Shown here piece by piece: positions 7,456 through 61,805 of a DNA stretch of 64,000 bases. The translations under genes were made by a program, and so were the position numbers. Under the pieces are notes generated by a model. It ran no database searches. It was not told the DNA's origin and saw only the letters and a list, made by a program, of their open reading frames with translations. This DNA is from an uncultured Chloroflexia bacterium (GTDB taxonomy: Bacteria; Chloroflexota; Limnocylindria; Limnocylindrales; CSP1-4): assembly GCA_963781705.1 (NCBI GenBank), contig CAWAGP010000010.1:746767-810766 (forward strand), given 5' to 3'. Numbering within the stretch: the stretch's first letter is position 1; each line of letters opens with the position of its first letter.

Positions 7456-9098
7456 CGCTTGACCTCGAGCGCCTGCGGCATGGGCAGCCCCTTTGGCCGC
7501 TTCTGCCGGTGCGTGTCATGGCCGCCGCCCGGCGCGGTCGTTCCGGTCGTCTCCGGCGCCACGTCCAGGCCGATGTGCCGCAGGGCGGCGCCGGCCGACA
7601 CGATCTCGTTGCCGACGCCGACGTCCGCCGGCGGCAGGCCAAAGGCGAGGCCCATCAGCTGGGTGAAGAAGAGGATCGGTACGTGGTAATTCGTCCCGAA
7701 GTGGCGATCCATCTCGCCCTGGTAGGCGTCGACGTTCATCTGGCACATCGGGCACACCGTCGCCAGCAGGTCGGCGCTCTGTCGCTCAGCGCCGTCGACG
7801 ATGCGCCGGATCAGCTCCCACGCAGTGGTCGGGCTGATCTGCGTCATGTGCCCGCCGCAGCACGCCGTGCGCTGCGTGAAGTCGACCACCTCAGCGCCCA
7901 ATGCGGCGAGCAACTGGTCGAGCATGTGCGGCTGCTCGCGCGCCGCCCAGCGGCGGTCGTAATCGGGGCGCGAGACGAGGCAGCCAAGGTAGGGCGCGAC
8001 CCGCAGGCCGTTCAGCGGGCGCGTGACATGGGCGGCAATCTCGTCCAGGCCGACATCCTCGATGAGCACCTCGAGCAGGTGGCGCACCCGGACCGCGCCC
8101 GGCGTGTAGTGCAGCCCGTCGGCCGCAAGGACCGAGTTGAGGCGGTCACGGAAGGCGGGATCGGTACGCGTGTAGCGGTCGGTCTTGGTCAGGTTGACGT
8201 AGCAGGCGCTGCACGGCGCGACGAGCGTCTGCGCGCCATCACGCTGCTGCTCCGCGAGCGCCAGGTTGCGGCCGATCAGCGCATGGCCGCGCAGCGGGCT
8301 GAGCGTCAGGTACTCCGTGGCGCCGCAGCAGTTCCAGTCGTCGATCTCGCGCAGCTGAATGCCGAGCGGCTCGACGATCGCCGCGAGCGACTCAGCGTAG
8401 GCGCGCGCGCTGCCCTCGAGCGAGCAGCCCGGGTAGTAGAGGTACTCGGTCACGCCACTGCGTCCGGATGGGGCGTCGCCAGCCTCGATCTCGCCTGCTC
8501 GGGCGAGGATCGCGCGGACTCCGGCCACGCCGCGGATGCGCTGTGGCATGAAGCCCATGCGGCCCTTGGCCAGCATGGCCATGCCCATCGGCACCAGCCC
8601 GGGCAGGCGCAGCGGATGGTGACGCAGGTAGTGCCGCGCAACCAGGCCCATCTCATAGCTGCGGCCGTAGCGGGCGATGTTGGCCACGAAGGTGTGCGAG
8701 AAGTCGGCGCCGGTCCGCTCCGGTGCTACTCCCTCTCGCTCGGCAATCGACTTGATCGCGTACATCACGTCGGGAATGTGGATCTCCTGCGGGCAGCGGA
8801 TCGCGCAGAAGTAGCACGACAGGCACATCCACGGCGTGTTGCTGCGCAGCACGTCGTCGCGCAGGCCGGCCAGCACCATCGCGAACAACGCGCGCGGAGT
8901 GTGGTCCATGTCCGCGGCCGACGGACACGATCCGCCGCACGTGCCGCATTGGATGCAGCGCTCGAGTCCGGTCTCGACTGCCGCGGCGGCTCTCACTTCG
9001 TCGAGGAAGCGCGGGGCCGGCAGCCCGGGTCGCGTTCCAGGTGCGCCGGTATTCACTGGTGCGCCGGCATTCCCTGCCACTGCGTCCACGGTCGGCAC
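7452..9098 (-). CDS. hdrCB: Fused heterodisulfide reductase HdrC-HdrB-like protein (2x[4Fe-4S] ferredoxin domain plus two CCG domains)
   Basis: CIQCGTCGGSCP and CLSCYFCAIRCP (HdrC-like) are followed in the same uninterrupted frame by YYPGCS...DWNCCGA and TACCGGH (HdrB CCG domains). The start is uncertain: GTG 9098 or 9089, just after the ACT gene stop. An ATGA overlap joins it to hdrA. Confidence 0.85.
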   Translation of the reverse strand: MPTVDAVAGNAGAPVNTGAPGTRPGLPAPRFLDEVRAAAAVETGLERCIQCGTCGGSCPSAADMDHTPRALFAMVLAGLRDDVLRSNTPWMCLSCYFCAIRCPQEIHIPDVMYAIKSIAEREGVAPERTGADFSHTFVANIARYGRSYEMGLVARHYLRHHPLRLPGLVPMGMAMLAKGRMGFMPQRIRGVAGVRAILARAGEIEAGDAPSGRSGVTEYLYYPGCSLEGSARAYAESLAAIVEPLGIQLREIDDWNCCGATEYLTLSPLRGHALIGRNLALAEQQRDGAQTLVAPCSACYVNLTKTDRYTRTDPAFRDRLNSVLAADGLHYTPGAVRVRHLLEVLIEDVGLDEIAAHVTRPLNGLRVAPYLGCLVSRPDYDRRWAAREQPHMLDQLLAALGAEVVDFTQRTACCGGHMTQISPTTAWELIRRIVDGAERQSADLLATVCPMCQMNVDAYQGEMDRHFGTNYHVPILFFTQLMGLAFGLPPADVGVGNEIVSAGAALRHIGLDVAPETTGTTAPGGGHDTHRQKRPKGLPMPQALEVKR

Positions 9099-9735: not shown

Positions 9736-11067
9736 ATGCCCGACGAAGCCGCCCGGACGGGTCTCGCGGTTCTCGACATGGCGCGCGCCGAGCGCTTCGC
9801 CGAGATCGCCGGTATGTTCCTTCCGCAGCTGCGGGCGATGGTCTCGGCCGGAGCCGTCGAGGCCGCGTGGAACGCGGTGGTGAGCGAACTCGGAGCCCTC
9901 AGTTCCGCAGGCACACCGGTCACCGAGGAGAGTGCGGCCGGCGCGACCGTCGTCAAGATCCCGCTGACGTTCGAGCACGGCGCCAGAACACTCGTCGTCA
10001 GCGTGAGCGCGTCGGGTGGCCTGTCTGGCGTCCAGGTCGCTTCGGCCGAGGCCGCCCGGCCGGTTAGCCCGTGGCTGCCGCCCACCTACGCCGATCCGGG
10101 AGCCTTCGACGAGCATGACGTTGTCGTCGGCGATGGCCCGCTGACGGTGCCGGGCACGATGAGCGTGCCCCATGGCGCCGGCCCCTTCGCCGGGATCGTG
10201 TTGCTGTCGGGATCCGGCCCGAACGACCGCGACGGCACGGTCGGGCGCAACAAGCCGCTCAAGGACGTGGCATGGGGCCTTGCCAGCCGTGGCATAGCCG
10301 TACTACGTTTCGACAAGGTCACCCTGGCCCATCCCGCCGAGGTCATGAAGCTCGGCGACATCACGCTGAGTGCCGAGTACGGGCAGGCCGCCGCCGCCGT
10401 CCAGCTCCTCCGGCAGCACGCCGGGGTGGACGGTGAGCACGTCTTTCTCCTTGGTCACAGCCTGGGCGGCACCGTCGCCCCGCGCATCGCCGCCGGCGAC
10501 ACGTCGATTGCCGGACTGGTTCTTTTCGCCGGCGGGGCGGCCCCGCTGCAATGGGTGCTCGTCCGCCAGATGCGCTACCTGGCGTCACTGGATCCCGCGT
10601 CGGCGCCCGCGGCCGAGCCGGCGCTGGCTGCCATGACTGAACGGGCAAAGGCGGTCGACAACCCCGATCTGTCGCCGGCGACGCCGAGCGACCAGCTGCC
10701 CTTCGGCCTGCCGGCCTCATATTGGCTGGACCTGCGCGCATACCGTCCGGCACAGGTTGCCGCTTCGCTGGGCCGCCCGATCCTGCTGCTCCAGGGCGGC
10801 CGCGACTACCAGGCGACCGTTGCTGACGACCTGGCCATTTGGCAGGCCGGGCTCGCCGGCACGCCCGATGTCACGATGCGCATCTACCCGGAGGACAATC
10901 ACTTCTTCTTCGTCGGCAGCGGCAAGTCGTCGCCGGCCGAGCTCGAAGCGGTCCAGCACGTCGATCCGGCGGTCGTCTCCGACATCGCCGGTTGGCTGCT
11001 CGCCACCAGCCGCGCCGAGCGACCCACTCGATCCGAATCACGCGATCCGTCCCGGAGGCAGACATGA
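9736..11067 (+). CDS. Alpha/beta hydrolase with an N-terminal DUF3887-like domain
   Basis: GHSLGG nucleophile elbow (LLGHSLGGTVAP) and a late NHFF region with His. ATG 9736 was chosen; the upstream part of the ORF is Arg-rich and overlaps the divergent promoter region. Confidence 0.75.
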   Translation: MPDEAARTGLAVLDMARAERFAEIAGMFLPQLRAMVSAGAVEAAWNAVVSELGALSSAGTPVTEESAAGATVVKIPLTFEHGARTLVVSVSASGGLSGVQVASAEAARPVSPWLPPTYADPGAFDEHDVVVGDGPLTVPGTMSVPHGAGPFAGIVLLSGSGPNDRDGTVGRNKPLKDVAWGLASRGIAVLRFDKVTLAHPAEVMKLGDITLSAEYGQAAAAVQLLRQHAGVDGEHVFLLGHSLGGTVAPRIAAGDTSIAGLVLFAGGAAPLQWVLVRQMRYLASLDPASAPAAEPALAAMTERAKAVDNPDLSPATPSDQLPFGLPASYWLDLRAYRPAQVAASLGRPILLLQGGRDYQATVADDLAIWQAGLAGTPDVTMRIYPEDNHFFFVGSGKSSPAELEAVQHVDPAVVSDIAGWLLATSRAERPTRSESRDPSRRQT

Positions 11068-15621: not shown

Positions 15622-16005
15622 ATGAAGGAGAGCGCCGCCGTGACCGCCACCGGCCTATCAGCCACCCCGGCCGAATACCGCAAGCGGCTCGCTCAGCAAT
15701 CTGACGAGCAGATCGACTCGTGGGCGGCGGAGCTGATGCGCGACATCTCCATCAGTCACGGCGTCACGCATGTCCTCGACAATCTGCGCTCCGCCTTCTC
15801 TGCTGACGACACCGGTTTGCAGCGGATCTACGCTCGCGGCGGCGGACCGTCGGCCGCAGTCGGCCACACCGAGGATGGCCGCCTGATGGTCCCGGCCATA
15901 TCGCTGCTCTACTTCGTGAGTGGCGCGCGCTTGGTGTTGCCCGACGCGCGGGCCCGGCTCATCAACTACCTGGTCAAGAACTTCGACGAACTGATCTATA
16001 TCTAG
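15622..16005 (+). CDS. Hypothetical protein (127 aa)
   Basis: ATG with GGAG 8 nt upstream. Amino-acid composition is non-repetitive and coding-like, and the 3' end has lower GC. I recognise no family. Confidence 0.5.
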   Translation: MKESAAVTATGLSATPAEYRKRLAQQSDEQIDSWAAELMRDISISHGVTHVLDNLRSAFSADDTGLQRIYARGGGPSAAVGHTEDGRLMVPAISLLYFVSGARLVLPDARARLINYLVKNFDELIYI

Positions 16006-16925: not shown

Positions 16926-17936
16926 CTAGTGTTCGAGCGGTCGGCCGCTGCGGACGACGGTAATTGCGTTCTCGAGCCTGAGCTTGGCGATAGTCAGGTA
17001 TTTGGCCAGGTTGGCGCGGTCGACCTCATTGATGCCGGACAGCAGTTGAGCGGAACCGAGGACGTCGCCGAGCTGCTCGAGTGCCTCGGCCAGGCTGGCC
17101 TTGGCGGCCACCAGTGCGTTGTCGCCGGCGGCCGCCGGTCGTCTGCTGGCGCTGGCCGCGAACTCATCCTCCGCTGTCGCCTGCACGGCCTCCGCGCCCG
17201 GCTCGGCCTGCCCGGACTCCGGCTGGCTGGCCCGGTGGCGCCCCTCGATCTTCTCGCGCAGCTTGACCAGGCTGAGTTCGCCGGCGGCGACCTGCTCGGC
17301 CAGTCGGCGCCGCTTGCGCGGGTCCTCAACCTTGAGCAGTTCATAGGCGTGGGAAAGCGTGTCTTTGCGCAAAGACACAAGCTGCTTGATCTCGGTTGGC
17401 GCGCCCGCCAGTCGCAGGCGGTTCTCGATGTAGCCCTTGTCCTTGCCCATCTTCTGCGCTAGTCGGCGGACGCTGTAGCCATGCTCGGTCGTCATCCGGT
17501 CGTAGATCATCGCTTCTTCGAGCGGCGACAGGTCCTCGCGCTGCAGGTTCTCGATGATGCCGATCTCGAGCGCCGTGTCGTCGTCGAGCTGCTCGATGAG
17601 GGCCGGAATCTCGCTCAGGCCCGCCGCGCGCGCCGCCCGCCAGCGACGTTCGCCGGCGACCAACTGGTACCGATGCGGCTCGCCAACGGGCCGTACGAGG
17701 ACCGGCTGGAGCACGCCGTGCTCGCGGATGGATGCCGCGAGGTCGGCCAGGGCAGCCTCGTCGAAATTCATGCGTGGCTGGTCGGGATTGGGTGTGATCC
17801 GCTCGAGCGCGACGTTGCGCACGCCGGCGGGCCGATCCGTCCCCTCGGGCGTCAGCAGGCTGAGGATGGCCGGCGACAGCTCGCGCTCTTCGGAAAGCCG
17901 GCGGGCAGCCGTACCGCGGAAGTCGGGTCTAGCCAA
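16926..17936 (-). CDS. parB: Chromosome partitioning protein ParB/Spo0J
   Basis: ERITPNPDQPRMNFDE, GVLQPVLVRP and the LVAGERRWRAA arginine patch, followed by an HTH region. The gene overlaps parA by 8 nt. Confidence 0.93.
   Translation of the reverse strand: MARPDFRGTAARRLSEERELSPAILSLLTPEGTDRPAGVRNVALERITPNPDQPRMNFDEAALADLAASIREHGVLQPVLVRPVGEPHRYQLVAGERRWRAARAAGLSEIPALIEQLDDDTALEIGIIENLQREDLSPLEEAMIYDRMTTEHGYSVRRLAQKMGKDKGYIENRLRLAGAPTEIKQLVSLRKDTLSHAYELLKVEDPRKRRRLAEQVAAGELSLVKLREKIEGRHRASQPESGQAEPGAEAVQATAEDEFAASASRRPAAAGDNALVAAKASLAEALEQLGDVLGSAQLLSGINEVDRANLAKYLTIAKLRLENAITVVRSGRPLEH
17359..17378. promoter_or_regulatory. Perfect 20-bp palindrome GTGTCTTTGCGCAAAGACAC inside the parB coding sequence (candidate protein-binding or parS-like site)
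   Basis: Read directly from the sequence. 18 of its 20 nt recur exactly at 20434-20451. Confidence 0.45.
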
Positions 17937-18744
17937 GTTCGATCACCTCCCGTGCCAATCCGCGATAGGCACGTGCTGCGTCGGTGTTGCTCGCGTAGGA
18001 CGTCACCGGCCGACCAACCAGCGGTGCCTCACCGAGGCGCACCGTCTGTTTGATCATGTTCTCGAAGATATGGTGATCGCCCATGTCGCGCAACTCCTGC
18101 AGCATGTCGCGCCCGAGCAGCGTGCGACTGTCGTAGAAGGTGGGCAGCAGGCCGAGTACGCGCAACCTGGGGTTGAGGCCCTTCGAACGGATCTGATTGA
18201 TCACGTTGGTCAGCGCCGAGAAGCCCTTCAGCGCGTAGTACTGCGTCTGCACCGGGATGATCACGCCATCCGCGGCGACGAGTGAGTTCAGGGTTAGTAA
18301 GCCGAGGGTGGGCGGGCAGTCGATCAGCACGTAGTCATAGTCGGTCACGGCGGGGGACTGCAGGACTTCGCGCAGCGCCTGCTCGCGACCGATGCTGCTG
18401 AAGAGCATGTTTTCTGTCGCCGACAGATCGATCGTGGCCGGTGCGACATCGACGCCGGTCGTCTGGGTGGGGAGGATCACGTCCTCGATGTCGACCTTGG
18501 GTTCGACCAGGACGTCTGCCATCGACCGCTCGACGTTGCGCATGTTGATTCCCAGCCCGACGCTCAGGTTGGACTGCGGATCCATGTCAACGCACAGAAC
18601 GCGGTAGCCCTGCTCCGCCAGCGATCCGGCCAGGTTGATGGCCGTGGTTGTCTTGCCTACGCCGCCCTTCTGGTTCGCGATGGCGATGATCCTGGCCAAC
18701 GGTCTGTGACCTCTTCTGTGGTGGGACGCGGGACGCGCCGTCAA
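17929..18744 (-). CDS. parA: Chromosome partitioning ATPase ParA/Soj
   Basis: IIAIANQKGGVGKTTTAINLA (deviant Walker A) and CVDMDPQSN. The exact start is uncertain. Confidence 0.93.
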   Translation of the reverse strand: MTARPASHHRRGHRPLARIIAIANQKGGVGKTTTAINLAGSLAEQGYRVLCVDMDPQSNLSVGLGINMRNVERSMADVLVEPKVDIEDVILPTQTTGVDVAPATIDLSATENMLFSSIGREQALREVLQSPAVTDYDYVLIDCPPTLGLLTLNSLVAADGVIIPVQTQYYALKGFSALTNVINQIRSKGLNPRLRVLGLLPTFYDSRTLLGRDMLQELRDMGDHHIFENMIKQTVRLGEAPLVGRPVTSYASNTDAARAYRGLAREVIELG

Positions 18745-18777
18745 TCTAGCAAGAATGCGGCTGGTCGCGACACTCGG

Positions 18778-18844
18778 TTATCCACAGCTTGGCGTACTTG
18801 TTCACCGAATCTGTGGACATCCGGCATTGCTACGATAGTCCACG
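18778..18844. promoter_or_regulatory. Cluster of DnaA-box-like 9-mers in the parA/pccB divergent intergenic region
   Basis: TTATCCACA (18778-18786) matches the consensus perfectly. The others are TTGTTCACC (18798-18806), TGTGGACAT (18812-18820; reverse complement ATGTCCACA) and TAGTCCACG (18836-18844). Local GC is visibly lower than in the flanks. Confidence 0.5.
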
Positions 18845-18877
18845 TCGCCCTATTAACGGCCCCCGGAGGTTTTCGCC

Positions 18878-20431
18878 GTGTCGTCGCAGCAGCAGGAAAT
18901 CGAGCGGTTGCTCGCGCTGCGCGACCAGGCGCGTGAAGGCGGCGGCGCGGAGCGCATCGCCCAGCAGCACGAGCGCGGCAAGCTCACCGCGCACGAGCGC
19001 GTCGAACTGCTGTTGGATCCGGGCTCCTTCGTCGAGTTCGACGCGTTCGTCACCCACCGCGCGACGGACTTCGGACTCGAGCGGCAGCGCCCGCTGGGCG
19101 ACGGCGTGGTGGTCGGTCATGGAACTGTCGATGGGCGTCTCGTGTTCGTCTTCAGTCAGGACTTCACCGTTTTTGGTGGGTCGCTCTCGGAGGCGCACGC
19201 CGAAAAGATCTGCAAGGTGATGGACCTGGCGGTGAGCGTCGGCGCGCCGATCATCGGCCTCAACGACTCCGGTGGCGCGCGCATCCAGGAGGGCGTGGTC
19301 TCACTCGGCGGCTACGCCGACATATTCCTGCGCAATACGCTTGCCTCGGGTGTGGTGCCGCAGATATCGCTGGTGCTCGGGCCGTGCGCCGGCGGCGCGG
19401 TGTACTCGCCGGCGATCACCGACTTCACGATCATGGTCGAGGGCACCAGCTACATGTTCGTGACCGGCCCCGATGTGGTGCGCAGCGTCACGCACGAGGA
19501 AGTCGATCGCGAGCGGCTGGGCGGTGCATCCGTCCACACGACCATCAGCGGCGTGGCGCACCTGGCCGCGCACGACGAGGCACAGGCGATGGATCTGTGT
19601 CGCGAGTTGCTTGCCCACCTGCCGCAGAACAACCTCGAGCGTGCCCGGCCGCGTGCGACCGATGATCCGGCGGACCGCCAGGACACGCACCTGAATGATG
19701 TCGTGCCCGCCGATCCCGCGCAGCCGTACGACATGCACGAAGTGATCCTGAGCATCATCGACGACGAACGCTTCCTTGAGCTGCAACCGGCGTGGGCGGC
19801 CAACATCATCGTTGGCTTCGCGCACATCGGCGGCCGTAGCGTGGGCGTGGTGGCACACCAGCCGGCGGTGCTGGCCGGCGCGCTGGATATCGATGCGTCG
19901 GACAAGGCCGCGCGTTTCGTGCGAACCTGCGACGCGTTCAATGTGCCGCTGTTGACCCTTGTCGATGTGCCCGGTTTCCTGCCGGGCGTAGCCCAAGAGC
20001 ACGGCGGCATCATTCGCCACGGGGCCAAGCTGTTGTACGCCTACGCCGAGGCGACGGTGCCCAAAGTGACGGTCATCACGCGCAAGGCCTATGGCGGCGC
20101 GTATGACGTCATGAGCAGCAAGCACATCCGCGGCGACGTCAACCTCGCCTGGCCGAGTGCGCGCATCGCGGTGATGGGCATCGAAGGCGCCGTGAACATC
20201 ATCTTCCGCGAGAACCTCGCCACGGCCGACGACCCGCAGGCAGAGCGCGTGCGGCTGGCCGCCGAATACGAGGAACGGTTCGCGAACCCGTACGTCGCCG
20301 CAGGCCGTGGTTACGTGGACGACGTGATCATCCCGGCGGAGACTCGCCCGCGCGTCATCTCGGCGCTACAGATGCTCGACGGTAAGCGCCAGTCGAACCT
20401 GCCGCGCAAACACGGCAACATTCCTCTCTGA
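18878..20431 (+). CDS. pccB: Acyl-CoA (propionyl-CoA/methylmalonyl-CoA) carboxyltransferase beta subunit
   Basis: 517 aa. [29 protein letters not shown] and the second CT domain ([14 protein letters not shown]) are typical PccB/AccD5-type sequences. GTG start. Confidence 0.92.
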
Positions 20432-20433
20432 CG

Positions 20434-20451
20434 GTGTCTTTGCGCAAAGAC
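20434..20451. promoter_or_regulatory. Second copy of the palindrome (GTGTCTTTGCGCAAAGAC; 16-bp perfect core) spanning the biotin carboxylase start
   Basis: Identical over 18 nt to 17359-17376. It sits 2 nt after the pccB stop. Confidence 0.45.
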
Positions 20452-21993
20452 GCTCCCTTCCGGTCGCTGCTGGTCGCCAATCGAGGGGAGATCGCGCTGC
20501 GCATCATCCGCGCCTGCCACGAGCTGGGGATCGAGGCGATCGCCGTGTACTCCGATGCCGATCGCGACGCAGTGCACGTCCGTGCCGCCGACCGGGCGGT
20601 CCACCTGGGCGGTTCCGCGCCGCGCGACAGCTACCTGAATCTCGAAGCGATCATGGCCGCCGCCCGCGCAGTGGACGCCGCGGCGCTTCATCCCGGCTAC
20701 GGCTTCCTGTCTGAGCAACCGGCGCTGGCCGAGGCATGCGCGGCCGCCGGCGTCGTGTTCGTCGGCCCGGCGCCGGAAACCCTGGCGCAGCTGGGTGACA
20801 AGCTCGCCGCGCGGGCGCGGGCACAGGCGGCGGGCGTGCCGGTGGTGCCGGGCACATTTGCGCCGGTGCGGCCAGATGAGTCACAGGCGGCCCTGCTCGC
20901 CGAGGCCGGCCGGATCGGTTTTCCCCTGATGGTCAAGGCGGCGGCCGGCGGTGGCGGCCGCGGCATGCGCCGAGTCGCCGCCGCCACAGACCTGGCCGAG
21001 GCACTGAACTCCGCGGCGCGTGAGGCGGCCGCAGCCTTCGGCGACGGCTCGGTCTACCTCGAGCGCTATGTCGAGAGCGGGCGACACATCGAGGTCCAGT
21101 TGATGGGCGACGCGCAGGGCACCATCGTTGCCCTGGGTGAACGCGACTGCTCGGTGCAACGGCGGCATCAGAAGCTGGTCGAAGAGGCTCCCGCGCCTGG
21201 CCTGGATTCAGTCCAGCGACAGCGCTTGCACCAGCTGGGCGTGCGCGTCGCGCAGACCGTCGGGCTGCGCAATGCCGCCACCGCGGAGTTCCTGATGACC
21301 GCCGATGGTGAGTTCTGGTTCCTTGAGGTCAACGCCCGGCTACAGGTCGAACACGGGGTCACCGAGCTGGTCAGTGGTCTCGACCTGGTGCACGAGCAAC
21401 TGCGGCTCGCCGCCGGTGAGCCGCTTTCAGACCAGGCGCGAGAAGTCGCGGCCACGGCTCATCAGCCGGGTCGCCATGCCATCGAAGTCAGGCTCAGCGC
21501 GGAGGATCCGGCGCGCCAGTTCGCGCCCGCACCGGGCACGGTCACGCGCTGGCGGATGCCGGCCGGACCGGGAGTTCGGATCGACGCGGGAGTGGAGGAG
21601 GGGAGCGTCGTCAGCCCGGACTATGATCCCCTGCTGGGCAAGCTGCTGGTCGTGGCGCGGGACCGGCCGGCCACCATCGCTCGCCTGGCTCGCGCCCTGG
21701 GCGAGGTCGAGGTGGGGGGCCTGCAGACGACCCTGCCGTTCGACCGATGGCTGCTGACGCGGCCCGAGTTCAGCCTGGCGGCCGACCTGGCGACCGATCT
21801 TGTCGATCGTCTGTGGGATCCGGCGCCATTGATCGGCGCGTCGGCACTGCGCGCCGCCGAGCTGGCGGCGCGCGAGGTCCTAGGCCGCGTCGGTCACGGG
21901 GCTACGCCCGCGGACATAGACGGCACCGGCCAGGATGGCGACGCGGCATGGTGGCGTGCCGGCATCGCCGACGCTCTCGAGGCGCCGCGGTGA
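20434..21993 (+). CDS. accC: Biotin carboxylase subunit of acetyl/propionyl-CoA carboxylase
   Basis: LLVANRGEIALRIIRA, an ATP-grasp region (MVKAAAGGGGRGMR) and EVNARLQVEH. The start is GTG 20434 or TTG 20440. Confidence 0.92.
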   Translation: MSLRKDAPFRSLLVANRGEIALRIIRACHELGIEAIAVYSDADRDAVHVRAADRAVHLGGSAPRDSYLNLEAIMAAARAVDAAALHPGYGFLSEQPALAEACAAAGVVFVGPAPETLAQLGDKLAARARAQAAGVPVVPGTFAPVRPDESQAALLAEAGRIGFPLMVKAAAGGGGRGMRRVAAATDLAEALNSAAREAAAAFGDGSVYLERYVESGRHIEVQLMGDAQGTIVALGERDCSVQRRHQKLVEEAPAPGLDSVQRQRLHQLGVRVAQTVGLRNAATAEFLMTADGEFWFLEVNARLQVEHGVTELVSGLDLVHEQLRLAAGEPLSDQAREVAATAHQPGRHAIEVRLSAEDPARQFAPAPGTVTRWRMPAGPGVRIDAGVEEGSVVSPDYDPLLGKLLVVARDRPATIARLARALGEVEVGGLQTTLPFDRWLLTRPEFSLAADLATDLVDRLWDPAPLIGASALRAAELAAREVLGRVGHGATPADIDGTGQDGDAAWWRAGIADALEAPR

Positions 21994-24576: not shown

Positions 24577-27180
24577 ATGCGCAGCGACCTGCCGACCGGA
24601 ACGGTCACCTTCCTGTTTAGCGACATCGAGGGTTCGACCAGGCTCCTGACCGACCTCGGCGCGGCGTACACCGGGTTGCTCAGCCGTCATCACGCCATAT
24701 GGCGGGCGGCCATTGCCGCGCACGATGGGGTGGAGGTCAAGACCGAGGGCGACGCCTTCTTCGTCGCTTTCCGCCGTGCGCCGGCTGCGGTCGCCTGTGC
24801 CAGCGACGCTCAGCGGGCCCTGTCGGCGGAGGGGTGGCCGGGCGGCCGCAGCGTGCGCGTGAGGGTCGGCATCCACACCGGTGAGGGCGACCTTTCCGAG
24901 AGTGACTACGTGGGCCTCGACGTCCATCGTGCGGCGCGCATCGCGGCGGCCGCGCACGGCGGTCAGGTCCTCCTGTCGGCGGCGGCTCGCGCGCTTGTCG
25001 CGCATGCGCTGCCCGTCGGCGTGACGCTGCGTGACCTGGGCGAACACCGGCTGAAGGACCTCACCGAACCAGTCGCTTTGTACCAGCTCGAGATCGTCGG
25101 TCTGCCGGCCGATTTCCCGCCACTGCGTGCACTCGGACGCGGCAACCTGCCCGAACAGCTGACGAGTTTCGTGGGGAGGGAGCGTGAGATCGGCGAGGTC
25201 ACCGATCTTCTCCGACATAGCCGGCTGCTGACGCTGACCGGACCCGGCGGCACCGGCAAGACGCGGCTGTCACTGGAGGTTGCCCGACTGGCCGAGGGGG
25301 GGTTCGCCGACGGGGCCTGGTTCGTCCCGTTGGACACCGTCACCGACCCGGCACTCGTGCTGCCGGCCATCGGTCGTGCGCTCGGCGTGCGCGAGGAGGG
25401 CGGTCGGCCGATGGGCGACGCCCTGGTCGATACGATTCGCGAGCGCCACATGCTGTTGGTGCTCGACAACCTCGAGCAGGTCGTTGCCGCGGCGCCGGCC
25501 ATCGCCAGCCTGTTGAGTGGCGCCCCGGCGCCGCGGGTGTTGTGCAGCAGCCGCGAGGCGCTCCGCGTCACGGGCGAACAGGAGTACCCGGTGCCGCCCC
25601 TGGCGCCCGAGCCGGCCACCAGCCTGTTCATCGAGCGCGCCCGCCAGGTGCGCCCCGGGTTTGCGCCGGACGAAAGTGAGCTGGCGGCCATCCGAAGCAT
25701 CTGCGCGGCGCTCGACGACCTGCCCTTGGCGATCGAGCTGGCGGCGGCGCGAACCCGCCTCTTCGCCGTGCCTGCGCTGCTCGAGCGCCTGAGCGATCGG
25801 CTCGCCACGCTCCAGTCGGGAGCGCGCGATCTGCCCGAACGGCAGCGCACGCTGCGCGGTGCGATCGACTGGAGTTACGAGTTGCTCGAACCAATCGAGC
25901 GTGAGGTCTTCGCCCGCCTGGCCGTGTTTGTCGGCAGCTTTGCTCTCGAGGCCGCCGAGGCGATCGTCGATCCACGCGGTGAGTTGGGCCAGGACGTGCT
26001 TGGCGCACTCGGATCGCTCATTGACAAGAGCCTGCTCCGGGCGGAAGAGGGACGCGGTACCGAGCCGCGCTTCGTGATGCTTGAGACGATCCGTGCGTAC
26101 GCCGCCGAGCGACTGGCCGGCGCGACGGTCGAGGGCGACCTACGTGGCCGTCATCTCGCCTACTACCTTGCGCGAGGCGAGACCTTCGAGCCAATGTTCA
26201 CTGGTCGCGACGCCGATCGAACGCTCAACAACGCGCTTGCCGACAACGACAACTTCCGTGCCGCGATCGAGTGGGCACTGGCCGGCGGCGACCTGGCCGC
26301 CGGCCTGCTTATCGGTGGCGCGCTGTGGCGCTACTGGCAGCAGCGCGGCAGGCTGAGCGAAGGGCGGCAGTTGCTGGAGCAACTGCTCGGCTCACCTCAC
26401 TCGGCCGATCATCCCGCGGCCCGGGCCCGAGCCCTGTCCGGCTATGGCGGCGTCGTCTACTGGCAGGGCGAGCACGAACTGGCACGTTCCGTTTACGTCG
26501 AGGCACTCGGTCTCTATCGGGCTGAAGGCGACGAACCGCGGGTGGCCCTGGCACTGTTCGATCTGGCCTTTACCGTCGCCATCGCACGCGAGGTCGACGC
26601 CGCAACGGCGCTGCTCGACGAGGCCTCGGCGATCTATCGTCGACTGGGTGACGAGCGCGGCTGGCTGATGATCGAGCAGGGCAAGGCGGCCGTGGGCATG
26701 ATTGCCGGCGACCTACCTCGGGCGCGCGATGCCGCTGCCGGCCTGGTGCCGGAGTACCGGCGCCTGGGCATGACCTTCCAGGTGGCCGATACGCTCGGAT
26801 TGCTGACCGCGATCGAGGTCCAGCTTGGCAATGTCGAGGGCGCCCGCCGTGCGCTGCAGGAGGCTGGTGAGGTGTTCATGGAAGTCGGCGACGTGTCGTC
26901 GTTCGCGGCGATGTTGCAGTTCGCCGGCAGCGTCGCGCTGCTCGATGGGCGGCCGGCGGACGCAGCGCGGCTGGCTGGCGCGCTGCAGGCCAAGCGCGAC
27001 CGAGGCGGAGCTTTCCTCACGCCGGCCGAAATCATCAACCTGCCTGACCCAGAACATGGCGCGCGCGAGGCCCTGCCGCCAGACGAGTTCGAGGCGGCCT
27101 ACGCCGAGGGCCGGCAGTGGTCGCGCGAGCAGGCCCTTGACTTCGCGATGAACTCAGCCGGGCCGGCTGCCGAACGCTAG
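24577..27180 (+). CDS. Class III adenylate/guanylate cyclase domain fused to a STAND-type ATPase and TPR repeats (no HTH)
   Basis: TVTFLFSDIEGST...KTEGDAFFVAF...RVGIHTGE (cyclase), LTGPGGTGKTRL (Walker A) and a long C-terminal helical repeat region. The architecture resembles the mycobacterial cyclase-ATPase family. Confidence 0.85.
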   Translation: MRSDLPTGTVTFLFSDIEGSTRLLTDLGAAYTGLLSRHHAIWRAAIAAHDGVEVKTEGDAFFVAFRRAPAAVACASDAQRALSAEGWPGGRSVRVRVGIHTGEGDLSESDYVGLDVHRAARIAAAAHGGQVLLSAAARALVAHALPVGVTLRDLGEHRLKDLTEPVALYQLEIVGLPADFPPLRALGRGNLPEQLTSFVGREREIGEVTDLLRHSRLLTLTGPGGTGKTRLSLEVARLAEGGFADGAWFVPLDTVTDPALVLPAIGRALGVREEGGRPMGDALVDTIRERHMLLVLDNLEQVVAAAPAIASLLSGAPAPRVLCSSREALRVTGEQEYPVPPLAPEPATSLFIERARQVRPGFAPDESELAAIRSICAALDDLPLAIELAAARTRLFAVPALLERLSDRLATLQSGARDLPERQRTLRGAIDWSYELLEPIEREVFARLAVFVGSFALEAAEAIVDPRGELGQDVLGALGSLIDKSLLRAEEGRGTEPRFVMLETIRAYAAERLAGATVEGDLRGRHLAYYLARGETFEPMFTGRDADRTLNNALADNDNFRAAIEWALAGGDLAAGLLIGGALWRYWQQRGRLSEGRQLLEQLLGSPHSADHPAARARALSGYGGVVYWQGEHELARSVYVEALGLYRAEGDEPRVALALFDLAFTVAIAREVDAATALLDEASAIYRRLGDERGWLMIEQGKAAVGMIAGDLPRARDAAAGLVPEYRRLGMTFQVADTLGLLTAIEVQLGNVEGARRALQEAGEVFMEVGDVSSFAAMLQFAGSVALLDGRPADAARLAGALQAKRDRGGAFLTPAEIINLPDPEHGAREALPPDEFEAAYAEGRQWSREQALDFAMNSAGPAAER

Positions 27181-42482: not shown

Positions 42483-42840
42483 GGCCAGCGAGACGATTGG
42501 ACGGTCGCGTGTCCCGTCGGCGCAAGCCGTTACCGACACGAGGAAAGTCCGAGCTCCGCGACGCAGGGTAGCGGGTAACTCCCGTCCGCCGAGAGGCGAG
42601 GACCAGCGCCACAGAGACGAGCCGGCAGACCGGGCAACCGGTTGGGCTGGGTGAAACGGGCAAGCTCTACCTGGAGCAAGGCCAAATAGGAAAGCGCGCC
42701 AGGCGCAAGCCTGGCAGGGGTGCGTCGCCTCGCTTTCGGGTCGGCCGCTAGAGGCGTCGGGCAACCGCCGCCGTAGATGGATGACCGTCCCCGCGCTTAG
42801 CGCGGGACAGAACTCGGCTTACAGATCGTCTCGCTGGCTC
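42483..42840 (+). ncRNA. rnpB: RNase P RNA, bacterial type A
   Basis: Contains GAGGAAAGTCCGAGCTCC (CR-I) and GGGACAGAACTCGGCTTACAG (CR-V). The terminal P1 helix pairs CCAGCGAGACGAT (42485-42497) with ATCGTCTCGCTGG (42825-42837). Ends are approximate, to within a few nt. Confidence 0.93.
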
Positions 42841-61730: not shown

Positions 61731-61805
61731 GGGCGATTGGCTCAGTGGTAGAGCACGCGGTTCACATCCGCGGGGTCACTGGTTCGAATCCAGTATCGCC
61801 CACCA
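61731..61805 (+). tRNA. tRNA-Val (anticodon CAC), CCA encoded
   Basis: Acceptor stem GGGCGAT/ATCGCCC, D arm GCTCAGTGGTAGAGC, anticodon stem CGCGG/CCGCG with loop TTCACAT, T arm ACTGG-TTCGAAT-CCAGT, discriminator A, then CCA. Confidence 0.93.

Follow-up and report, generated by a model that had tools for sequence, protein, structure and literature searches.

A 64,000-nucleotide stretch of DNA from an uncultured Chloroflexia bacterium (contig CAWAGP010000010.1; hereafter the window) carries two copies of a palindrome at the locus of its partition genes parA and parB. Both palindromes are probably non-canonical, centromere-like parS sites, recognised by the divergent ParB protein whose own gene hosts one of them. 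Across relatives, the palindromes were conserved, were confined to the par locus and occurred exclusively together with the ParB variant, and canonical parS was absent from the DNA examined. The first-pass annotation of the window had offered a lineage-specific centromere variant as one explanation of the pair; this explanation was favoured by the comparative evidence, namely conservation at synonymous and non-coding positions, confinement to parAB and an altered ParB. Chromosomal parS and its protein are among the most conserved DNA-protein recognition pairs in bacteria, and to our knowledge Noc with its Noc-binding site (NBS) is the only well-studied natural specificity switch. A literature search found the motif in no bacterial context and found no work joining Limnocylindria with chromosome segregation.

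The palindromes and the divergent ParB

The first palindrome (site C, 17359-17378, no strand assigned) lies in the interior of parB (16926-17936, minus strand). It reads GTGTCTTTGCGCAAAGACAC, a perfect palindrome of 20 base pairs (bp) with the 16-bp core GTCTTTGCGCAAAGAC at 17361-17376. The second (site A, 20434-20451, likewise unstranded) reads GTGTCTTTGCGCAAAGAC and is an exact copy of the first 18 nucleotides of site C; GC follows, so that 18 of its 20 positions are palindromic. This copy, with its 16-bp core at 20436-20451, sits at the junction of the pccB stop and the accC start; its first three nucleotides form the GTG start codon of the biotin carboxylase gene, 2 nucleotides past the pccB stop. 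The coordinates and sequences first reported for the 20-bp palindrome and its 18-nucleotide copy were both borne out. Site C is translated as V187-S-L-R-K-D-T193 within the ParB DNA-binding domain, and the site at the accC start as (M)SLRKDA.

Even when up to 4 mismatches were allowed, the window yielded no further copy, giving a total of two in 64 kb. Site C was the only perfect 20-bp palindrome in the window, for which about 0.22 were expected from base composition, and the chance expectation for a second exact copy of the 18-mer was 5e-7. A chance origin of the sites was rejected on this expectation and on their conservation across genomes. The canonical consensus TGTTNCACGTGAAACA was not matched, showing that the motif is not a canonical parS. 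The earlier statement that the window lacks a full canonical parS also held when TGTTNCACGTGAAACA was searched for across the 64 kb at up to 3 mismatches. Chromosomal and Bsr parS sites share a grammar (PMC5450999): they are 16-bp palindromes in which the 5' arm is rich in T and a 6-bp core, made up of 2C/2G/1A/1T, has CG at its centre. The new motif, GTCTT-TGCGCA-AAGAC, shows this pattern in its length, arm, core and centre.

Judged by its sequence, the parB product is a bona fide ParB/Spo0J partition protein with a parA gene adjacent. It matched Pfam ParB_N and HTH_ParB (PF02195 + PF17762) and scored 165 bits against the NCBIfam model TIGR00180 (cut-off 58). The cytidine triphosphate (CTP)-binding motifs of ParB_N, GERRWRA and ENLQRE, were intact, and G95-A101 and E129-D135 were invariant in homologues. 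The DNA-binding signature, GKDKGYIENRLRL...VSLRKDTLSHAYELL, was divergent, and the segment GKDKGYIENRLRLAGAPTEIKQLVSLRKDTLSHAYELL was essentially invariant in 120 homologues. In Caulobacter ParB, parS is contacted by Q162, G170, K171, S172, R173, N178, G201 and R204, and R173 is invariant among parS binders (PMC7383237). The equivalent residues, read off an ungapped HMMER alignment to solved ParB/Noc structures and given here in Caulobacter numbering, were V, G, K, D, K, N, S and Y in the Limnocylindria ParB. The replacements (Q162 to V, S172 to D, R173 to K, G201 to S and R204 to Y) were invariant in the 120 homologues. The equivalent of R173 was kept in all 47 control ParBs with a readable signature, and most of these had GHA[RK] at 201-204. 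In the register of the half-site, the new site itself differs from parS at the positions that separate parS from NBS, position 1 (G to T) and position 6 (A to G).

Conservation and distribution among relatives

Site type co-varied with the DNA-contact residues of ParB (K/S/Y in the family versus R/G/R(K) in most controls at 173/201/204). A ParB-profile search of metagenomes returned 80 loci, made up of 32 family loci and 48 with a canonical ParB from other phyla. The new motif (up to 2 mismatches) was present in 23/32 family loci and 0/48 canonical-ParB loci (Fisher p = 4e-13), whereas canonical parS (up to 1 mismatch) was present in 0/32 and 28/48, respectively (Fisher p = 6e-9). When all family DNA was pooled (130 loci, 1.01 Mb), 225 new-motif sites and no canonical parS at up to 2 mismatches were counted, against 66 canonical parS and no new-motif sites in the control loci (0.45 Mb). 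Of the 48 control loci, 31 carried a canonical parS. For each genome, about 8-64 kb was read around parAB and motif matches. Canonical parS sites near by, which the first-pass annotation had named as evidence that would count against its proposal, were not found in this DNA.

The ParB homologues place the source of the window, a contig of 1.22 Mb, in Chloroflexota, Candidatus Limnocylindria. Both sites were kept in three orthologous loci on contigs of 0.3-2.4 Mb, with ParB proteins 77-85% identical and the gene order ubiA < parB < parA <> pccB > accC > BCCP > mcm, where BCCP is the gene of the biotin carboxyl carrier protein. In more than 100 Candidatus Limnocylindria relatives, the core GTCTTTGCGCAAAGAC was kept at both positions, in parB and at the accC start. 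An exact 16-mer scan of one genome per species (596 Gb) gave at least 119 blocks of 8 kb, apparently unordered. Among the blocks listed, 92 were labelled Chloroflexota; two more, labelled Methylomirabilota and Verrucomicrobiia, carried PccB/AccC of the family (57-72% identity) and were counted in it, giving 94. Each of the other 25 listed blocks came from an unrelated phylum and held a single match, unaccompanied by a degenerate second copy; such matches are expected by chance in 596 Gb of sequence. Within the 94 Limnocylindria-type blocks, 105 exact sites were counted among the matches listed, of which 73 stood at the pccB/accC junction and 11 inside parB. About 14 more of the 105 lay in the rest of the neighbourhood (the parA-pccB or parA-mcm intergenic region, the accC/BCCP junction, or downstream of sucD), and about 7 lay elsewhere, at the 3' ends of or inside unrelated genes or between genes. 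Scatter of the copies over the chromosome, which had likewise been put forward as evidence to the contrary, was not seen: about 93% of the listed exact copies lay within about 5 kb of parAB. The sample being apparently unordered, this indicates that the motif is concentrated at the par locus and not scattered.

At up to 2 mismatches, most relatives showed a fixed layout of site A at the accC start, site B upstream of pccB and site C in parB, with an occasional site D at the BCCP start and 1-4 copies per locus at fixed positions. The consensus across relatives was YGTC(T/C)(T/G)TGCGCA(A/C)(A/G)GACR, and variation sat mostly at half-site positions 4 and 5, on one side. In most relatives, site B was placed 24-99 bp upstream of pccB; it was absent from the subclade of the window. 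Where pccB/accC were missing and mcm faced parA, one or more sites were still present upstream of parA (L011, L073, L095, L118 and L132; L-numbers label the loci of relatives).

Several individual loci deserve mention. A fourth exact copy, site D, was found at the accC end/BCCP start, about 4 kb upstream of parB, at L015 7833, L035 7095, L052 2771, L096 4960 and L098 486. Far from parAB, extra copies with extended palindromes of 22-24 bp occurred at L082 1955-1978 and L097 1003-1024. Both stand at the 3' end of a thiamine-diphosphate enzyme gene, the two genes being orthologous, and are candidate distal sites; L097 shares a contig with the par locus L022, about 360 kb away. In L001, one and the same G to A change (GTCTTTACGCAAAGAC) breaks the palindrome of both copies, at 7489-7504 and 10564-10579; the strand is the same in each, and the change is synonymous in both genes. 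This single case could reflect gene conversion between the sites or coincidence. Some metagenome-assembled genomes (MAGs) with other labels carried Limnocylindria-type ParB/PccB/AccC (55-84% identical) together with the motif, on the contigs of L011, L088 and L103 (Anaerolineaceae), L026 (Methylomirabilota) and L121 (Verrucomicrobiia); the probable cause is mis-binning or coarse labelling, and not that the system has spread. The MAG MFD06742.bin.2.302 held two different par loci (L018 and L052).

The motif was conserved at the level of DNA and not as protein code. At the accC junction it occurred in all three frames and was read as xSLRKDx, VFAQRR or RLCAKT depending on the genome, indicating that the constraint is not protein-coding; it overlapped the start codon or stood about 24-56 nucleotides upstream of it, as estimated from extrapolated protein alignments. 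Within parB, the palindrome fell on the same codons in 66 family genes, with 0-2 mismatches. Codons were surveyed in 47 parB genes with 49-100% amino acid identity, from genomes with about 85% G or C at the third codon position. The motif codons were GTG in 46/47 (background 0.28), TCT in 28/44 (0.058), TTG in 31/36 (0.076), CGC in 45/47 (0.50) and AAA in 34/44 (0.089). Synonymous sites should be saturated at this range of ParB identity. TCT, TTG and AAA are rare, AT-ending codons, and invariant residues near by used common ones (K202, AAG in 47/47; L186/L200, CTG/CTC). AAA was also used in 22/23 motif-bearing family loci of the metagenome sample, which was selected by ParB and is unbiased in this respect. 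The comparison of synonymous sites in parB orthologues that had been called for at the outset thus showed conservation, in rare codons.

Proposed partition sites and alternative explanations

We infer ParB binding, clamp loading and a role in segregation from these observations. A ParB dimer would nucleate on each palindrome through its helix-turn-helix and the helix that follows. CTP bound at the N-terminal GERRWRA/ENLQRE domain would then close the clamp, and ParB would slide onto flanking DNA. With two to four nucleation sites, one partition complex would form over the parB-parA-pccB-accC region of about 3-5 kb, on which ParA would act. As ParB would spread over the parAB promoter region, the complex probably also autoregulates this promoter.

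The proposed pair resembles the canonical systems of Bacillus subtilis Spo0J and Caulobacter ParB in its ParB_N CTPase motifs, helix-turn-helix, C-terminal dimerisation region and parA-parB operon, and in having a few 16-bp palindromes at parAB, one of them inside parB, with T-rich arms and a central CG. However, its half-site is GTCTTTGC against the canonical TGTTTCAC (3/8 positions in register), its in-gene site falls in the segment for the DNA-binding domain and not in the linker/3' region, and R173, G201, R204 and Q162 are replaced by K, S, Y and V. Noc, the Firmicutes ParB paralogue that binds NBS (TATTNCCCGGGAAATA), is a specificity switch within the ParB family through residues 173, 179, 184 and 201. 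Two of these positions, 173 and 201, are altered in the present ParB too, and its residue at 179 is basic (R173 in window numbering). Unlike the new sites, which are few and located at parAB, NBS sites are numerous and dispersed. Noc also lacks a partner ParA and has an N-terminus that targets the membrane, whereas the present parB adjoins parA and its product did not reach the NCBIfam Noc cut-off. The Bsr systems of Burkholderiales secondary replicons and Vibrio chromosome 2 share the parS grammar and have their own ParB for each site (PMC5450999). Those systems serve secondary replicons beside a canonical main-chromosome system, whereas the present one was found across the whole class on contigs of 1.2-3.1 Mb with no canonical sites seen near. 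The operator OB of plasmid RK2, bound by KorB, is likewise a palindrome with a T-tract, a GC core and an A-tract. KorB is a ParB-family CTPase that doubles as a transcriptional repressor, a precedent for clamps that regulate nearby promoters, and by analogy it could explain the position of site B near the pccB and parA promoters. However, KorB belongs to a plasmid system and has another DNA-binding domain, and its match to this ParB was limited to the N-terminal part (E = 6e-15).

Several points weigh against a partition role. A divergent ParB subgroup keeps GKDKGY but replaces VSLRKDT by VAKRYDT, VAERSDT or VAARRDT, and no recognisable copy of the motif was found in the short loci available for it. 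The genome blocks were chosen by the exact motif, and the binomial p-values for the codons ignore shared ancestry and overstate significance. A second, canonical ParB/parS pair may lie elsewhere in the genomes, each of which was read over about 8-64 kb. Further, parAB adjoined pccB or mcm in 40/40 loci that extended far enough; as parAB was never apart from pcc/acc/mcm, the sites are inseparable from the propionate-pathway operon. Of the four site positions, three mark the 5' end of a gene (pccB, accC and the BCCP gene, respectively), an arrangement that would also suit an operon regulator. A search of the divergent subgroup (L142-146, L149-151 and L153) for a variant palindrome of its own, shared among its loci, found none, so that covariation between ParB subtype and site variant could not be shown.

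The sites might instead be operators of another dimeric regulator, acting on the pccB-accC-BCCP-mcm operon (propionyl-CoA to succinyl-CoA), with the parB copy secondary or co-opted. The promoter-proximal position of site B, 24-99 bp before the pccB start, the placement of site A at the accC start and of site D at the accC/BCCP junction, the site in the mcm-parA intergenic region where pcc/acc are missing, and a synteny of parAB with pcc/acc/mcm that was never broken all fit such an operator. However, the neighbourhood held no conserved regulator gene. Its sole conserved gene of unknown function (127 amino acids, 15622-16005) resembles no solved structure and hence no known DNA-binding protein, and the STAND/HTH_77 gene at 24577-27180 was absent from L002 and L003. 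An operator would also leave unexplained the strong synonymous-site selection inside parB, the replaced parS-contact residues together with the lack of canonical parS, and the distant extra sites at the 3' ends of unrelated genes (L082, L097, L031 and L081). We consider this explanation quite unlikely. It is very improbable that the sites serve some other chromosome-organising factor or recombination system (Noc/SlmA-like, an SMC loader or Xer-type) and not ParB: they are palindromic, few and restricted to one locus, and the top NCBIfam score of the ParB was to the Noc model (190 bits), but this score is far under the cut-off of 315, NBS sites are dispersed genome-wide (PMC7383237) and the new ones cluster at parAB, three to four tandemly placed copies in an essential-looking gene cluster are unlike dif, and no candidate gene was found. 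Least probable of all, to the point of being hardly credible, is an RNA hairpin in the mRNAs, acting for example in translation initiation or processing at cistron junctions. Several copies are at cistron starts, and the one at accC could fold into a hairpin that overlaps the start codon, with 9 bp in its stem, 7 of them from the core, and a 4-nucleotide loop. What was conserved, however, was the primary sequence and not the pairing, as common variants (GTCCTTGC..., GTCTGTGC..., ...CAAGGAC) break pairs with no compensatory changes. The local fold was no stabler than shuffles (z = 0.45), no Rfam match was found at the site, and copies occurred on both transcription polarities and also at 3' ends and between genes.

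A partition role might extend further, to a class-wide rewired ParB-parS code of the main chromosome combined with KorB-like control of the propionyl-CoA carboxylase/methylmalonyl-CoA mutase operon. We regard this joint proposal as unlikely. If it were true, replication initiation, segregation and central carbon metabolism would be coupled through sites adjacent to DnaA boxes. If the partition reading is true, the class-wide swap of site and contact residues (R173K, G201S and R204Y) on a main chromosome would be an independent natural experiment in the evolution of the code. Pipelines that use the canonical motif to find origins or parS will call 'no parS' in these abundant soil and freshwater Chloroflexota, and an orthogonal ParB/parS pair would serve the labelling of DNA loci.

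Genes and DnaA boxes around the sites

The parA gene, for a Walker-type partition ATPase, occupies 17929-18744 on the minus strand and overlaps parB by 8 nucleotides. Translation may in fact begin at a codon downstream of the TTG at 18744, as the ParA proteins of relatives have 255-256 amino acids. The parA-pccB intergenic region (18745-18877, unstranded) contains the DnaA boxes and, in most relatives, site B. It is followed on the plus strand by the pccB-like acyl-CoA carboxyltransferase gene (18878-20431), which in most relatives lies between sites B and A, and by the accC-like biotin carboxylase gene (20434-21993), whose first codons overlap site A.

The first-pass annotation had described a cluster of DnaA boxes upstream of parA. 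A perfect box, TTATCCACA, was indeed present at 18778-18786, but the cluster was weaker than described, as the second, inverted box (TGTGGACAT, 18812-18820) is degenerate. The perfect box was the only DnaA box in the window at up to 1 mismatch. Among 64 parA-pccB intergenic regions of the family, TTATCCACA was kept in 56 (62 at up to 1 mismatch), and the second, inverted box, TGTGGATAT, usually started 33-35 bp downstream of it. From this conservation, DnaA may control the parA/pccB promoters, or the boxes may form a DnaA-box cluster. Two boxes, with no AT-rich unwinding element in sight, do not suffice to establish an origin. No DnaA signature peptide was encoded in the 64-kb window, dnaA and oriC were not identified there, and GC skew across the 64 kb was uninformative on the origin. 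In a sublineage of ten loci (L014, L061, L072, L087, L109, L122, L136, L137, L141 and L147), site B was GTCTTTGTGCAAAGAC or GTCGTTGTGCAAAGAC and began 27 bp after the start of the DnaA box, overlapping the position of the second inverted box in other lineages.

The conserved gene at 15622-16005 (plus strand, 127 amino acids in the window and 121-127 among relatives) always stood beside parB/ubiA, convergent with parB, and was present even alongside the divergent ParB subgroup. It was restricted to the lineage (637 homologues in 5.8 billion proteins) and had no Pfam or NCBIfam match. Its AlphaFold model was confident (pLDDT 89, pTM 0.83), mostly helical and matched no solved structure (best E = 2.5), a result that neither supports nor excludes this protein as an alternative binder of the sites. 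Downstream of the mcm/epimerase genes, 24577-27180 (plus strand) encodes an 867-amino-acid protein with adenylate/guanylate cyclase, STAND ATPase and TPR parts, whose orthologue in L001 also carries HTH_77. The gene occurs in L001 but in neither L002 nor L003, and so does not count as a conserved partner of the sites. Elsewhere in the window, a bacterial class A RNase P RNA was found at 42489-42837 (plus strand, 209 bits) and a tRNA gene at 61731-61802 (plus strand).

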